From: Bacteroidota bacterium
Lineage (GTDB): Bacteria; Bacteroidota; Bacteroidia; AKYH767-A; 2013-40CM-41-45
DNA length: 33,226 nucleotides
Direction: 5' to 3'
Assembly: GCA_046052625.1 (NCBI GenBank)
Contig: JBJOMA010000294.1
Location: forward strand, 1 to 33,226
The notes beneath the pieces were generated by a model. It did not search any database. It saw only the letters and a program-made list of their open reading frames with translations, and was not told the DNA's origin. Each line of letters starts with the position of its first letter. The stretch's first letter is position 1. This document shows, in pieces, positions 25,740 through 31,523 of this stretch. The translations under genes were made by a program, and so were the position numbers.

Positions 25740-25947
25740 GGCAGTTCAGGATTGGATTAGGATCCATAAAAATAACGGAACCGGAGATATGCAAGCAAGG
25801 TGATCACCATTAATTATCGGCCATCCGCCGAAAATCATCGAATGCACATGATTAAAAAACAGGTAAACAATACAGCCTTGCGTGATTCAAAATACCGAAC
25901 GGTTGATTCTGCCCTTTGTATCCATGGATGCATGAAGGATTCTCCCC

Positions 25948-26202
25948 TCAGTTCCCTTTATGCTTTTTGTAAATCATCTGACACACCTTGTCCATGGCTT
26001 TGAAAACTGCCGTATCAATCGCAGGTGCCCTGGAGATGCTGGTCAACGTGACAACGGCATTATATAATACATCATTTTGTTGTCGCGGTATGCGCTCGAT
26101 AAAATCGATCTTATTACTTCCCTTGGGCGAATCAGAAACGATCACCTCTTCGGTTTTAACGTCTATTGCAAAGAGCATGTTCTTAGTCGTCGCTTTGATC
26201 AT
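25948..26202 (-). CDS. Small hypothetical protein (84 aa) directly downstream of the HNH gene
   Basis: ATG start 15 nt after the HNH stop, on the same strand. No signal peptide and no recognisable motif. AT-richer codon usage than the flanking chromosome. Confidence 0.5.
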   Translation of the reverse strand: MIKATTKNMLFAIDVKTEEVIVSDSPKGSNKIDFIERIPRQQNDVLYNAVVTLTSISRAPAIDTAVFKAMDKVCQMIYKKHKGN

Positions 26203-26217
26203 TCAGTTCATGGGTTT

Positions 26218-26637
26218 TCAATGTAAATGGCATCGGCCGCTGGCATTATTCGTCTTGTTCCTGCATCGTGTCCCCTTTTTCGTCGTACCTGTACATTGGG
26301 TGGCAACAGATCCGGATTTCGTTCGTGTGGAATTGCCGTCGCAACAATCATGGCCCACCTTCCTATCATGCACTTTACAGAAACAGCTGTTCGACTTGCT
26401 TCGGTTGCACTTCATACAAAGCAACTGGACATTGGAAGCATCGCTGCTGCCGCCACAGGAAAAAGGCATTATATGATCATATTCCAGATTGTCTGAGCTA
26501 CCGCAACATTGACAGGCTCCTCCATCTCTTGAAAAGACGATGCTTTTTGTCGTTTGCGAGATGTGTCGGTTCTGCGAAAAACAACTGAGGCTGATTAAAC
26601 CCAGCGACAGAAACAATAACAATCCTTTCATTTTCAT
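26218..26637 (-). CDS. HNH endonuclease with an N-terminal signal peptide and a Cys/His-rich C-terminal tail
   Basis: - Signal peptide MKMKGLLLFLSLGLISLSCFSQ (possible lipoprotein Cys19, non-canonical lipobox).
- HNH core: CQCCGSSDNLEYDHIMPFSCGGSSDASNVQLLCMKCNRSK (CxxC...DH...N...CxxC-N).
- Tail: QCTGTTKKGTRCRNKTNNASGRCHLH. Confidence 0.75.
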   Translation of the reverse strand: MKMKGLLLFLSLGLISLSCFSQNRHISQTTKSIVFSRDGGACQCCGSSDNLEYDHIMPFSCGGSSDASNVQLLCMKCNRSKSNSCFCKVHDRKVGHDCCDGNSTRTKSGSVATQCTGTTKKGTRCRNKTNNASGRCHLH

Positions 26638-26821
26638 GACCGGCTCGATTACCGATGAAAAGCTACAAAATTGTGTGACTCAATGCTTACAGTGATTGAC
26701 TGTTTATTAAACTATTTGGCGATTGCCTGTTCAGCCGAGCGGGATCTGAGCCACCGAAAAAACATAAGAAGTACATCTCCCAAAAACTAGCATGAAAACT
26801 GTTTTCGCTTGTAATCATTTT

Positions 26822-27283
26822 CTATCGCAACAGGTCCCAACGCTCCAAATATTTTCCTGACTTGTCGCTAAATTGTCGCATCGCTGTATCCTTGTGCGCT
26901 TGTCCTTTTTTACCCGGTGTAGCAAGCCATTTTTGATGGCCGGCTTTTACATGTTTCGCAACTTCTTTGCTGGGCACAATAAAATACGATGGTCTTTCAT
27001 CTATTTTATTAAACGCCACAAAAACATAAAACATGTTTTCATGTTGTAAATTTTCTGCCTTTTGTCCGACCGGCCATTTCCGGCTTGAATATTGGCTTGT
27101 CTTTACTTGTATCGCGAATATTTTTTTGTCCACCAAGCTGGAAGCATGAATATCAATGCTTTCATTGTTCCTTAAAGTTATTGATGCCATATATCCTCTT
27201 CTTGACAATTCACCTGCAACAAAATATTCTCCGGCTATTCCTGTTATTCCTTTTGATAACTTACTCGCAATATTTTTTCTCAT
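26822..27283 (-). CDS. Minimal PD-(D/E)xK nuclease-fold protein (Hjc/Mrr-like core)
   Basis: GIAGEYFVAGELSRRGYMASI...ESIDIHAS...IFAIQVKTS matches the helix-Glu, Asp, then (E/Q)xK arrangement of restriction-endonuclease-like folds. Markedly AT-rich gene. No partner domain. Confidence 0.55.
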   Translation of the reverse strand: MRKNIASKLSKGITGIAGEYFVAGELSRRGYMASITLRNNESIDIHASSLVDKKIFAIQVKTSQYSSRKWPVGQKAENLQHENMFYVFVAFNKIDERPSYFIVPSKEVAKHVKAGHQKWLATPGKKGQAHKDTAMRQFSDKSGKYLERWDLLR

Positions 27284-27523
27284 GGCACTGTCTTATTAAC
27301 GTATTCCTGCTGCGCTGGATTTAAAATCCGACACAGCCCGCAGACTGTCAATTTTGAAAAATAAATAAATGGCCGTAAACATCGTAATCAGAGGGTCAGC
27401 AGTTCAGGAATCCACGTGTTAAATCGAAGCTAGCCGTCCGGTTTTTAAAAAACCAGAAAAAGGACAAGGGCCTCTATAATCCGGCCAAACTTCTTGACTG
27501 GCTTTCCATGTCAGGTTAGCGGG

Positions 27524-30037
27524 TCACTTGATATGAACAATCCTGCTTTTATACACGTTACGGCCGGACTTCAAAATGAGTAAATAGATTCCATCATCAA
27601 GCGATTCGCAGCTTAGCTGGACAGATTCCTTCCCTGCATCATCACAACACATGATGCCGTTTGTCGGCGATCCCGATCGTTCACAAGATGTGCTGCTACT
27701 TGTCGAGATATTCATCCTCTTTCCTTCCAGAGAGTAGACTTCCACTTCGACCGCCGATTGTTCTTTCAAGATATATGATACCGTGAGGGTATTCCTGAAA
27801 GGGTTCGGGGAAAGTGAGACATCATAAAAAACGATTTGTGATTCCGGATTGGTTGCGTCCAAAGGCCTTAACACAGGTCCGTTCTCACACGCCTTGGTGA
27901 CCAAATTTGATGAGGCGCTGTAGGTATAACCGGCATTTGTCACATTCGTCACTTCATAACACCACTGGACAGCCGGATTCTTTATAGAAGCTGAATTCAG
28001 GATCACTTGGCCGTTCGCATCTGTTGTTCCTGAAACTGTCCCTGTAGTGGGGCCCGTGAACAGTCCGGTAACAATTGCACCTGAAACAGCCGCACCGACA
28101 CCGTTTACTATCCTCACCGTTGCAACGCCCTTATACTTTCCTGCTCCGGCAGCGGCACGTGTAACAGTCAGACTGTTAACATACATTACATTACCTCCTG
28201 TTCCTCCTGACTGTGTGATGGCAGAAGCTACGTTAGACGGTGTCGAATTTCCACCTGTATTGAACGCGATGACACGGTAGTAATACGTCGTAGAAGCGCT
28301 GAGGCCGTTGTCCAAGTAGGTTACCGCATTTAGGCCCACAGAAGCCAGAGGGCTGAAGTGCATTCCATCGGCGGACCGCTCAATATTGAATCCGGTTTCA
28401 TTGGATGAGTTGTCAGTCCACGAAAGGCTGATCGAAGTGCTCGAAGCAGCTGTGGCCGTAAGACTTGTCGGAGCCGGAAGGGTGGCGCCGCCAGCGAGTA
28501 CATAGTAATCGGAATAAGGAGTCGCCAGGTCGCCATCAGCCGGGAACGAAGGAGGACCCTGACCCCCGATTACATTCATCCAACCCATGGCGCCTTGGTC
28601 TTCGTGGTCAAGAAGATGGCAATGCATCATGCCCATGCCTGAATAAGGAGTTGATGTGGCGACATTGAGATCGAAACGAGCGGTGCCTGTTGCTGTCAAC
28701 ACATCATAATATTCACCGGCCTCATAACTGCCGGAAGAAGTCTGTACCTGCAGATGAAATGTATGCAGATGGAAAGGATGGTTCGAGTTTCCGGATAAGT
28801 TCCATTCCTGGATCTGGTTCGCCTGCAACGTGAAATTAGGCGTACTCGGGTTGAATTTGTTCCCATTGATTGTGCGTGCGCCCATGGAAACCGATTCAAG
28901 ATGTACCGGGCCAACTCCTCGGAGGTCTCTTAGATAATTCGGACGTATTGCCGACCATGTAGAGACGCCGTCGGACGCAAAAGGATTGGGTCCCGTATTC
29001 GGTGTGCCCGACGCTATGATACCGGCCGCTACGCCCCCGTCAACACTGAAGGTTGAATTACCGGTTATACGTATGGCCACATCCACGCGGGAAGCTCCTG
29101 TAATAACGATGCTGTTGGATGTAAGGGCCTTGGGTGCGACCGTACGCCAGACCCCATCGCGAGCCAGAAGCATTACCTGGCAACCGGCACCCCAAGAAAG
29201 CGTGACAGAGCCGTCGCTGCGATTGGCTGCCAGGATGCGCCAATGCTGCCAGGTGTTGGCGGGCATGCAGATGTTTCCGTTCACAATACCGTTCACTGTC
29301 CAGGTAGGATTCAATGATCCGCTCAGCAGTACATCACCGCCGGTCCCCGCTGCTGCTTTATCCAGATACCCTACCACCAATTGCTTTTCGGGCATGGCAG
29401 CCACATTCGCCGGAATACCGTCATTGGCATCATCGACTATCAGCATCCCGAAAAGTCCTCCAGATATCTGTAGAAAACTGGACCCGTGGTGATGGGCGTG
29501 GTACCAGAATGTGCCTCCCATATGATTGGCAGGGATGTCCCAAACGAAATCCCCGCCGCGACCTCCTTCAAAAGCACGCATGGTATTGTCACCCGGTGTT
29601 TCACCTGAAATGTGCAATCCGTGTGTGTGAATGTTTGTGGCATTGGGGTCTTTGTAAACGTTCAGGCTTGTATTCAGTGCGGCGAAAGGCAGTGTGTTTT
29701 GCAGTTGAAGCACATACTTGTTGCCGGGTACCACTTTGATGGTCGGTCCCGGAATGCTGTAACTCCCACCCTGCTGACGATATGCTCTCGTGGTGAGTGT
29801 CTGACCGTTGTTCAGTGTGAACGTAGCCTGACCGACTTCCAGTACGCCACTGTAGTAGGCTACGGGATTGTTCGCCGTGACGGGATGATAGGTCCAGGTG
29901 AACTGTTGCGGATCTTGCACCGCATTAGGCCCGGTACATTGGCTATAAGCGTCCTCACAAAAAAGCGCCATTGCAATTAACACGGGAAATATTCTCCAAA
30001 CGGAGATGACAAGGATGGCACTTTGTTTTTTATTCAT
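27524..30037 (-). CDS. Three-domain multicopper oxidase (laccase-like) fused to FN3, a beta-sandwich domain and a T9SS C-terminal domain
   Basis: - Signal peptide.
- Four copper-ligand motifs: HTHGLH, WYHAHHH, HPFHLHTFH, HCHLLDHEDQGAM.
- FN3: SISLSWTDNSSNETGFNIERS...YYYRVIAFN.
- CTD: LSPNPFRNTLTVSY...DGIYLLIL. Confidence 0.9.
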   Translation of the reverse strand: MNKKQSAILVISVWRIFPVLIAMALFCEDAYSQCTGPNAVQDPQQFTWTYHPVTANNPVAYYSGVLEVGQATFTLNNGQTLTTRAYRQQGGSYSIPGPTIKVVPGNKYVLQLQNTLPFAALNTSLNVYKDPNATNIHTHGLHISGETPGDNTMRAFEGGRGGDFVWDIPANHMGGTFWYHAHHHGSSFLQISGGLFGMLIVDDANDGIPANVAAMPEKQLVVGYLDKAAAGTGGDVLLSGSLNPTWTVNGIVNGNICMPANTWQHWRILAANRSDGSVTLSWGAGCQVMLLARDGVWRTVAPKALTSNSIVITGASRVDVAIRITGNSTFSVDGGVAAGIIASGTPNTGPNPFASDGVSTWSAIRPNYLRDLRGVGPVHLESVSMGARTINGNKFNPSTPNFTLQANQIQEWNLSGNSNHPFHLHTFHLQVQTSSGSYEAGEYYDVLTATGTARFDLNVATSTPYSGMGMMHCHLLDHEDQGAMGWMNVIGGQGPPSFPADGDLATPYSDYYVLAGGATLPAPTSLTATAASSTSISLSWTDNSSNETGFNIERSADGMHFSPLASVGLNAVTYLDNGLSASTTYYYRVIAFNTGGNSTPSNVASAITQSGGTGGNVMYVNSLTVTRAAAGAGKYKGVATVRIVNGVGAAVSGAIVTGLFTGPTTGTVSGTTDANGQVILNSASIKNPAVQWCYEVTNVTNAGYTYSASSNLVTKACENGPVLRPLDATNPESQIVFYDVSLSPNPFRNTLTVSYILKEQSAVEVEVYSLEGKRMNISTSSSTSCERSGSPTNGIMCCDDAGKESVQLSCESLDDGIYLLILKSGRNVYKSRIVHIK

Positions 30038-31125
30038 TCAACTATCAATTTAGGTTCGTAAATCATCTGTCGAAACCCGGTCATGCTAAAGACATAGTAA
30101 CATGCTTTTCGAGTATTCCGGAGATCCGTACCGGGGTTAACTTTCATACGGATTGGGAATCTCGAAAAATCGGACATGGCTACTGGCCTGGCCGTACTTT
30201 TTACAAGACTTAATATAAACTGAACAGACTTAAAAGGCAATTGTTTGTATGTTTTTAGCCGATTTTAGTGGCATAATCAGTGGAAAATGGGAACATACCA
30301 CTAGACAGGCAACTCCGTCAGGCGGAAGAAAATACCGCATAGTGGAAAGTCAAAATTTCAACGAGTCGCTAATGCAATATTCTTTCAGGGCTGTTATTGA
30401 CTGCTGTGGGGGATTTGCAATTCTTCCTCTTTTCCCTTGCCGGCTGCTTCGGACCGCCGCATAAAGACTGGTGTATTTTAGTGTGAAAGATACAGCACAT
30501 TTCGTGAATTGATTTTTCCGCGACTTCTTTTGAAATTTCTGAAGTTCATCTCTTAGTCAATTCCGTTAAGGCTTCCACTTCTTACTCAATAAAACTAATA
30601 AGGAAATTTTAAAACATTCATTTTTGTTCCATTTTTGCCGGCGCTTTATACAACGGGCACGTCACTTTAACCTGATCGGTATTTGAAACGTGTGTATCCC
30701 GTATCGTTGTCTTTATGCTATGGCGACCTGACAACTTTGGGATACAATGTAATTCCGTTACGCATTACGTCTGCCGGCAAATGTTTTGAAAAATAATGTA
30801 TCAAGCCATGGAATGTAAACCGCTTCCGTATGAAGCGACACCGTACAGTTCGCTGATAAAATTAATGTACGCACTGTAGGATCTTTTTTCCAAAACAATG
30901 GAAAAACCTTTGGCCAAAAGAAAAACGAACGTAGTATTTGTGGAAATTACAAAGGAGCCCTTGCGAGCCTCCTTTGAATGCCTGTCGACACTAAACTTCT
31001 TACGAAGCACACAGCATCATAGAGACGCTGATCTGCAACTTTCGTGTAGGCACTGTCATGTGTAGTGCTGCAAGAATGCAATTCTGACATTCTAATATCA
31101 ATTGATTTCTTTAGGTGCAGGTAGA

Positions 31126-31218
31126 ATGTAACCCCTTCCTAAATCTCATTGTTTATACTGGTTCATTAAACTTAAGGGTTTTATTTTTTAGCAGTCCGAG
31201 ATTTAGGAGGGGTTACAT
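31126..31218. repeat. Long imperfect palindrome (about 21-bp arms, about 50-nt spacer)
   Basis: Left arm ATGTAACCCCTTCCTAAATCTC (31126..31147). Right arm GAGATTTAGGAGGGGTTACAT (31198..31218). The arms are reverse complements apart from one extra T in the left arm. Confidence 0.8.
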
Positions 31219-31219
31219 C

Positions 31220-31396
31220 TGGCAAAAGATTCATTACATCCATCAAAATCCCGTGAAGGCGAAATTTGTTCACCGGGAGGAGGATTATCTGTTCAGCTCA
31301 GCCAGGAATTATCACGGCTTACCATCGGTGATAGACGTGGAATGTATCACTCCACCTGTGATTACAGTGGGAAGTCCTGGCTTTTATAAGGGCTGA
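31220..31396 (+). pseudogene. C-terminal remnant of a REP-associated / IS200-like Y1 tyrosine transposase (RAYT family)
   Basis: WQKIHYIHQNPVKAKFVHREEDYLFSSARNYHG matches the conserved C-terminal YIHxNPVxAGxV...YxYSSA block of Bacteroidota Y1 transposase-like proteins. The catalytic N-terminal part (HUH and Tyr region) is absent. The track ORF (from GTG 31115) reads through the palindrome with no family resemblance. Confidence 0.6.
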
Positions 31397-31404
31397 ATGG
31401 GGTG

Positions 31405-31437
31405 CCGCTATGCGGTATTTAAAATCCCTCATAGCGG
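31405..31437. repeat. Stem-loop (8-bp stem)
   Basis: CCGCTATG (31405..31412) pairs with CATAGCGG (31430..31437). Confidence 0.6.
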
Positions 31438-31445
31438 TAAAATCA

Positions 31446-31472
31446 CTATTCAGGATTAAAAATCCTGAATAG
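31446..31472. repeat. Stem-loop (12-bp perfect stem, 3-nt loop)
   Basis: CTATTCAGGATT (31446..31457) pairs with AATCCTGAATAG (31461..31472). Confidence 0.7.
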
Positions 31473-31477
31473 CAAAA

Positions 31478-31500
31478 AAGGAGGCCTTTAGAGCCTCCTT
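31478..31500 (-). terminator. Rho-independent terminator of atpG (end of the atp operon segment)
   Basis: AAGGAGGC (31478..31485) pairs with GCCTCCTT (31493..31500). On the minus strand it is followed by TTTTTTGC. The plus strand also has an A/T-run arrangement. Confidence 0.75.
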
Positions 31501-31523
31501 CTAAAAAAAATATACGGTATCAA

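Follow-up and report, generated by a model that had tools for sequence, protein, structure and literature searches.

Why would a bacterium furnish a small HNH nuclease with an export signal and encode, immediately downstream, a second small protein that has none? A locus in a Bacteroidota bacterium raises this question. It lies on a contig of 33,226 bases (JBJOMA010000294.1, in assembly GCA_046052625.1), which was analysed whole and which we call the window; the source is a metagenome-assembled genome (MAG) of 2.5 Mb that is 82% complete. Two open reading frames (ORFs) are present there on the minus strand, both in the list of ORFs and on direct reading of the sequence: the gene of an HNH protein of 139 amino acids (aa) at 26218-26637, and an 84-aa gene at 25948-26202, which we refer to as the partner gene. 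A first-pass annotation of this DNA had put the two forward as a candidate exported nuclease toxin and its immunity protein.

The reading that we favour, with a probability of about one half, is that the two genes form an autonomous module of freshwater Bacteroidota, in which an exported HNH nuclease that would destroy DNA in the cell envelope is combined with a protective partner in the cytoplasm. From sequence we infer that the first protein acts as a nuclease without sequence specificity, that it resides in the periplasm, that the partner binds and inhibits it, and what the pair does for the cell; pairing of the two genes, their position in an accessory block and predicted export of the nuclease are the genetic marks that a nuclease with a partner for self-protection would be expected to leave.

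Conservation of the gene pair

We scanned one genome per prokaryotic species and found 211 loci encoding relatives of the HNH protein, the best 80 of which were analysed for context. In all 80 of these loci, the next gene after the HNH gene, on the same strand, is the partner gene, and the pairing first proposed for the window holds in each of them. The gap between the matched regions has a median of 31 nt (range 2-106 nt) and does not keep the reading frame. In the window, the two genes are separated by a 15-nt spacer (26203-26217, minus strand, by direct reading), next to the stop codon of the HNH gene at 26218-26220. The two ORFs of the window share a reading frame, in which they are split by TGA AAA CCC ATG AAC TGA (26196-26225). 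We considered a readthrough fusion of the two ORFs and rejected it, since the spacing in relatives shows no conservation of frame; we read the shared frame as coincidence.

Both genes are under purifying selection. The median ratio of nonsynonymous to synonymous substitution rates (dN/dS) is 0.135 for the HNH gene and 0.184 for the partner gene, as calculated from 202 unsaturated pairs, and the dN of the HNH gene is correlated with the dN of the partner gene (r = 0.51). Identity within both families is 60-75% across orders.

No further conserved neighbours were found: clustering of 817 neighbouring ORFs recovered only synteny at the level of lineages, and 93 Pfam families are represented among the 103 immediate neighbours, none of them more than three times. 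The DNA upstream of the pair does not align between loci, and we found no conserved promoter and no flanking repeats.

The HNH nuclease

The HNH gene (26218-26637, minus strand) encodes a 139-aa pre-protein, made up of a predicted signal peptide, an HNH nuclease core and a Cys/His-rich tail, with relatives in 821 homologue clusters. The core, of the His-Me finger type, spans residues 42-84 (26386-26514, minus strand) and contains C42xxC45, D54-H55, N69 and C74xxC77-N78. Matches to Pfam families HNH (PF01844; E 2e-11, 44.3 bits, curated cut-off 21.4; residues 42-83) and HNH_5 (PF14279; E 2.4e-8, 34.2 bits, curated cut-off 27.5) are above the curated cut-offs, and an alignment of 48 homologues, all of which match the HNH profile, shows C42, C45, D54, H55, N69, C74, C77 and N78 to be invariant. 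The full HNH core described in the first-pass annotation is thus confirmed, and the conservation of its catalytic and zinc-binding residues indicates that the active site is intact. Among named proteins, the protein is most closely related to the HNH domains of IscB and Cas9, to McrA-like enzymes and to phage HNH endonucleases; the closest solved structures to the core are Cas9/IscB HNH domains and 4h9d.

The family is uniform, with a mean column identity of 68% in the alignment. Its mature enzyme is about 118 aa long and has a median net charge of +13. The enzyme probably acts without sequence specificity.

Residues 85-139 (26221-26385, minus strand) form the additional Cys/His-rich tail that had also been noticed at first reading. 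It consists of two clusters, and nine of its residues are invariant in the 48 aligned homologues: C85, C87, H90, C98 and C99, and C115, C125, C136 and H139. Such a pattern suggests that the tail probably binds metal, is stabilised by disulfide bonds, or both; it may also help to hold nucleic acid. The second cluster matches DUF5763 (PF19067, cut-off 26.3 bits) weakly in 13 of the 48 homologues (best E 7e-4). The window's own protein has no DUF5763 match at E<=1, and the literature that we searched does not mention this family. Genomes searched with the DUF5763 profile gave no hits, and neither did the controls of that search.

Export of the nuclease

The signal peptide was judged by a rule-based analysis and by conservation among 70 family members. 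It occupies residues 1-21 of the window's protein (MKMKGLLLFLSLGLISLSCFS; 26575-26637, minus strand), and its pattern is kept in all 70: an n-region of the form M-K/R-K followed by a 15-residue hydrophobic core with a median Kyte-Doolittle value of 1.85. Cleavage by signal peptidase I (SPase I) is predicted between S21 and Q22, which would leave Gln at the mature N-terminus. Among the 70 members, the residue at -1 is always S, A or T, 68 have C, G, S or A at -3, and Gln stands at +1 in every one of them; in the homologues examined, the small-x-small site is followed by Q-S-R-Y. According to the "Q-rule" of Bacteroidota, signal peptidase I exposes an N-terminal Gln, which then cyclises (PMC5837995, PMC10653852), and by the rule-based analysis the signal of the HNH family conforms to this Sec/SPase I pattern in 70 of 70 members. 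We conclude from the rule-based analysis and the conservation that the export signal of the nuclease is genuine, in agreement with the first-pass annotation.

Two other destinations were considered for the exported protein. A lipoprotein was rejected because the family has no conserved lipobox Cys: Cys is found at position -3 in only 36 of 70 members, the others having G, S or A. Cargo of the type IX secretion system (T9SS) was rejected because there is no match to Por_Secre_tail or TIGR04183 in Pfam or NCBIfam at E<=1, and the C-terminus is instead the Cys/His-rich tail. As there is neither a T9SS C-terminal domain nor a lipobox, the default destination would be the periplasm, from which the enzyme could later be released.

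The export signal also bears on two familiar roles of HNH enzymes and of small gene pairs. We rejected a homing endonuclease, since an exported enzyme cannot cut the genome, as homing needs. A type II toxin-antitoxin system was rejected as well: the putative toxin has a conserved export signal, and the partner is encoded downstream and has no match to a DNA-binding family.

The small partner protein

The partner gene (25948-26202, minus strand) belongs to a family of 743 homologue clusters with 60-80% identity, and its product has no hydrophobic N-terminus. Together with the dN/dS values, this indicates that the small ORF is a real gene. Library searches bear out the initial description of an ORF without a signal peptide and without a recognisable family: there was no match in Pfam, NCBIfam, PADLOC or PHROGs, and no meaningful match to the Protein Data Bank (PDB) by sequence. 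In the literature searched, we found neither the pair nor the small-protein family described. The AlphaFold2 model of the partner is confident (predicted local distance difference test score, pLDDT, 90.1; predicted template modelling score, pTM, 0.78) and shows three beta-strands followed by two helices. Searches with this model for similar folds in PDB and BFVD gave no match below E 0.04, and a template modelling (TM) score of at most 0.49.

Exported homologues of the partner in phage-like DNA

A profile of the small protein was searched against 1.84 billion representative proteins. Most of the 85 matches belong to the protein's own family or are fragments. There is, in addition, a divergent subgroup of 92-129 aa, whose members have an N-terminal signal peptide of their own, ending in ...A-x-A|Q, with the domain directly after it. 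Comparison of the exported subgroup with the partner by hhalign gave a probability of 98% (E 1e-13; 37% identity over 76 columns). A profile of the subgroup recovers the window's partner gene with E 4.8e-23, and the window's partner aligns to three exported-type loci at 36-38% identity. These relationships indicate that the partner fold is also used outside the cytoplasm.

Three exported homologues (L140, 10001-10288, 95 aa; L141, 10001-10288; L138, 4001-4312) were traced to their contigs, which measure 60.6, 66.5 and about 20 kb. Both of the larger contigs encode GroEL/GroES, M15 peptidases and long runs of tiny ORFs; the 60.6-kb contig also encodes a glucosaminidase endolysin, a BT4734-type primase and an SNF2 helicase, and the 66.5-kb contig a PTL_trimer protein. 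The primase/helicase shares 63% identity with a gene of a 60.9-kb Caudoviricetes genome, and over its first 314 residues it shares 40% identity with genes from Flavobacterium phages about 60 kb in size. In the two larger contigs, the exported homologue stands just past a strand switch, amid small ORFs. The third contig is also phage-like. No HNH gene of this family was found in the approximately 47 kb of phage-like DNA examined, and the exported type of homologue occurs in none of 400 cellular genomes of the phylum. Searches of IMG/VR and INPHARED with the pair returned only generic matches to the HNH core, and neither the exported nor the cytoplasmic form of the small protein was found there; a search of plasmids likewise gave only generic HNH matches, with no sign that the pair originates from a plasmid.

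One high-GC viral contig in IMG/VR encodes a 155-aa HNH protein (L082, 5752-6219) whose N-terminus has two hydrophobic segments resembling membrane spans. This would be a different kind of HNH protein, tethered to the membrane.

The exported homologues bear on the question of whether the partner inhibits the nuclease at all. It could instead be a cytoplasmic helper, either a holdase or export chaperone for a pre-protein rich in Cys and zinc, or a factor for metal delivery or maturation. Strict pairing and short spacing would suit a helper, as would a compact, non-acidic protein of unfamiliar fold; a zinc-finger protein with 13 Cys residues is plausibly a difficult Sec substrate, and the known periplasmic His-Me nucleases work without inhibitors (PMC5714182). 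Nonetheless, the phage-like DNA examined encodes exported homologues without an HNH gene, and an export chaperone has no job in the periplasm. Exported homologues that occur without an HNH gene are easier to reconcile with a protein that binds the mature enzyme, which could be useful on either side of the membrane, than with a cytoplasmic export chaperone, and we regard the helper as an unlikely explanation.

Export of partner homologues by phages suggests that phages gain by neutralising such a nuclease in the periplasm. The HNH nuclease might thus be an envelope barrier to phage DNA, or to incoming DNA in general, which phages counter with a captured copy of the partner gene to which a signal peptide has been added. 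This extension of the favoured reading is speculative and, in our estimation, rather improbable. If it is true, phages would have turned an immunity gene into a Sec-exported anti-defence protein directed at a periplasmic defence enzyme.

Distribution and mobility of the module

By the titles of their records, nearly all of the best 80 loci belong to Bacteroidota, the majority being from lakes and rivers. Carriers include Crocinitomicaceae, Flavobacterium, Chitinophagaceae, Daejeonella and Saprospiraceae, and three of the 80 records are from cultured Flavobacterium strains, namely F. chungnamense JCM 17068, F. micromati DSM 17659 and F. fragile HXWNR69. Four are labelled otherwise, three with names of Pseudomonadota and one as an unclassified "uncultured bacterium". 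Taxonomic titles of MAGs are unreliable. We note that the pairs of three records titled Rhizobium sp., Alphaproteobacteria bacterium and Polynucleobacter meluiroseus (L010, L039 and L057) nest inside clades of Flavobacterium, Bacteroidia or Crocinitomicaceae. Binning contamination or wrong labels probably account for the carriers with proteobacterial titles, rather than transfer to Proteobacteria.

The module is rare, being found in none of 400 genomes drawn evenly from the phylum. Within the window's genus it occurs in four of nine genomes, and in none of 45 genomes from other genera of the same family. Three of the four copies in the genus have readable contexts, all of which differ; the fourth is at the end of a contig. 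In a tree of the concatenated pair some genera are grouped, but Crocinitomicaceae are split over at least three positions and Daejeonella over two. The history of the pair, as far as this tree reflects it, fits vertical descent within genera combined with transfer between families. The pattern of conservation and distribution indicates that the two genes form a strict, mobile module that is rare and patchy.

The provenance of the carriers raises the possibility that the module serves nutrition: the nuclease would digest environmental or imported DNA in the envelope, as a source of phosphorus or nucleotides in phosphorus-poor fresh water, and the partner would be a safety device. This idea draws on the lake and river records among the best 80 loci, on an enzyme that is small, basic and exported and that has no specificity domain, and on an S1/P1 nuclease gene that neighbours one related locus. 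Against it stand the rarity of the module in the sampled genomes and the genes around it, which in the 80 loci are never SusC/D-type uptake, phosphatase or nucleotidase genes. Scavenging also leaves the export of a partner homologue by phages unexplained. We consider it improbable that the module exists for this purpose.

Comparison with known nuclease-inhibitor systems

The best-known systems with this gene order are the HNH DNases of E-type colicins and S-type pyocins, with their immunity (Im) proteins. Like the module described here, they have a His-Me finger DNase that is exported from the cytoplasm, its gene lying just upstream of that for a signal-less protein of about 85 aa, and they are accessory and mobile. 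The similarity does not extend to the proteins themselves. Neither gene of the pair matches Colicin-DNase or Im (Colicin_Pyocin); the HNH core is a zinc finger of the CxxC...CxxC type, whose nearest counterparts are in Cas9/IscB, McrA and phage HNH enzymes; a Sec signal replaces the receptor and translocation domains; the modelled partner, with its three strands and two helices, differs from the Im four-helix bundle; and there is no diversifying evolution.

Polymorphic toxins with HNH-type tips, which are common in Bacteroidota, offer a second comparison, as they also combine an HNH-fold nuclease with a small cognate gene that follows it (Zhang et al. 2012, PMC3482391). By contrast, the protein studied here has no N-terminal trafficking, RHS or filamentous region, the loci have no variable tips or arrays of immunity cassettes, and the partner is in no described Imm or SUKH family.

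These comparisons bear directly on the proposal of the first-pass annotation, in which the released HNH protein kills competitors by degrading their DNA and the small protein protects the producer. The proposal is supported by the export of the nuclease, by the small cognate gene immediately downstream, and by traits that are bacteriocin-like, the pair being accessory, patchy and horizontally mobile. A mature protein of about 118 aa has, however, no receptor-binding, translocation or trafficking domain; it lacks a T9SS C-terminal domain, and a Sec signal is ill-suited to delivery by type VI secretion (T6SS). There is no known route by which it would enter the cytoplasm of a target cell. Moreover, we found no match to Colicin-DNase, Im or a Pfam immunity family at E<=1, and no polymorphism, orphan immunity cassettes or gene-wide diversifying selection (dN/dS 0.13 and 0.18). 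Immunity to an incoming toxin has to operate at the place of its arrival, which a cytoplasmic partner could do, but such a partner would suit protection of the cell against its own pre-protein equally well. What stands of the original proposal is an exported nuclease with a strictly co-conserved, signal-less partner; what falls, for want of a delivery domain and of polymorphism, is the bacteriocin or interbacterial toxin. A nuclease with a protective partner is plausible, whereas an interbacterial toxin is poorly supported, and we judge it to be very unlikely. The alternative offered in the first-pass annotation, an exported enzyme that breaks down extracellular DNA, may apply.

Among nucleases of the Gram-negative envelope, the endonuclease I family (Escherichia coli EndoI, Vibrio Vvn and Dns) is thought to limit the uptake of foreign DNA (PMC5714182). 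The HNH protein resembles these enzymes in being a small, Sec-exported, Cys-rich His-Me finger nuclease of the envelope, and probably also in being non-specific. It belongs to another His-Me subgroup and has no Endonuclease_1 match. The endonuclease I enzymes have no inhibitor gene, depend on disulfide bonds for activity and are widespread in a housekeeping-like manner, whereas the genes studied here form a rare mobile pair.

The closest parallels in logic may be NucA-NuiA of Anabaena and barnase-barstar of Bacillus, in which a secreted non-specific nuclease is accompanied by a small cytoplasmic neutraliser. The module would share this arrangement without any relation in sequence or fold, as there is no match to Endonuclease_NS, NuiA or barstar. 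Finally, the PADLOC-DB collection of anti-phage defence systems contained nothing for the partner, and for the nuclease only weak, generic HNH matches (best 1e-5, to REase_II).

A model for the module, and points against it

We propose that the first gene of the module gives rise to a small, strongly basic HNH nuclease, which would be exported by Sec and cut by signal peptidase I before Gln22. The nuclease would most likely stay in the periplasm or be released from there. The second gene, co-transcribed a few nucleotides downstream, would yield a cytoplasmic protein of 81-84 aa that binds the nuclease and shields the DNA of the producer from enzyme that folds before export. The logic of this self-protection would be that of barnase-barstar, NucA-NuiA and the colicin DNases with their Im proteins. 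The pair is transferred horizontally as a unit and frequently lost. Most likely it serves to destroy DNA within the cell envelope, whether to keep out foreign or phage DNA or to feed on DNA, and not to kill neighbours.

Several points weigh against this model. Sec substrates cross the membrane unfolded. Moreover, periplasmic nucleases such as Vvn and EndoI are inactive when reduced and need no inhibitor (PMC5714182), and by analogy an enzyme with 13 Cys residues might do no damage in the cytoplasm either. The partner is not of the acidic, DNA-mimicking type that is usual for nuclease inhibitors: the median isoelectric point (pI) of the family is 5.8, and that of the window's copy is 9.4. Its fold is unlike that of any immunity protein of known structure in the PDB and BFVD searches. 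The AlphaFold2 model of the HNH protein, tail included, is poor (pLDDT 66), and a fold search with this low-confidence model returned only weak matches to Cap5 HNH domains, which we set aside. Lastly, the neighbours of the pair in the 80 loci show no enrichment of functions in defence, mobility, transport or nutrient uptake.

Genomic setting in the window

In the window, the pair is enclosed by an accessory block (25740-31520), which we treat as context outside the module. The block also encodes a PD-(D/E)xK-like gene and a T9SS multicopper oxidase, and it includes an AT-rich stretch. The GC content is 0.448 for the pair, 0.458 for the block and 0.518 for the window, in keeping with the AT-richer accessory stretch reported in the first-pass annotation. 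In a congener whose genome is 97% complete (G407; locus L149, G407:C1, 3243-3428), only about 185 nt separate a gene for an M36 protease from atpG, which comes next. Since atpG lies so close behind the M36 protease gene in the congener, the whole 5.8-kb block of the window is extra and can be regarded as a lineage-specific insertion.

Directly upstream of the pair is a 153-aa gene (26822-27283, minus strand) that matches the phage family phrog_29029 (E 8.6e-14), of unknown function. Pfam gave no match for this gene, whose GC content of 0.385 makes it the most AT-rich one here. No counterpart of this gene adjoins the pair in any of the 80 related loci.

Implications

Exported nucleases with protective partners are already known. 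What sets this pair apart is that a minimal zinc-finger HNH protein of the Cas9/IscB/McrA type appears to be sent through Sec; that its partner belongs to a family absent from the databases searched, with a confidently predicted fold that has no structural match; that only freshwater Bacteroidota, in a patchy set among which it moves horizontally, carry the module; and that exported relatives of the partner, and of the partner only, are encoded by phages of this phylum. Should the partner prove to be an inhibitor, the two proteins would constitute a very small new nuclease-inhibitor pair, which could be put to use as a tool in the manner of barnase-barstar. The three cultured Flavobacterium strains that carry the module make these ideas directly testable. 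For the biology of these bacteria, the module may be the first sign that a nuclease in the periplasm forms a barrier which phages have to overcome from within the envelope.

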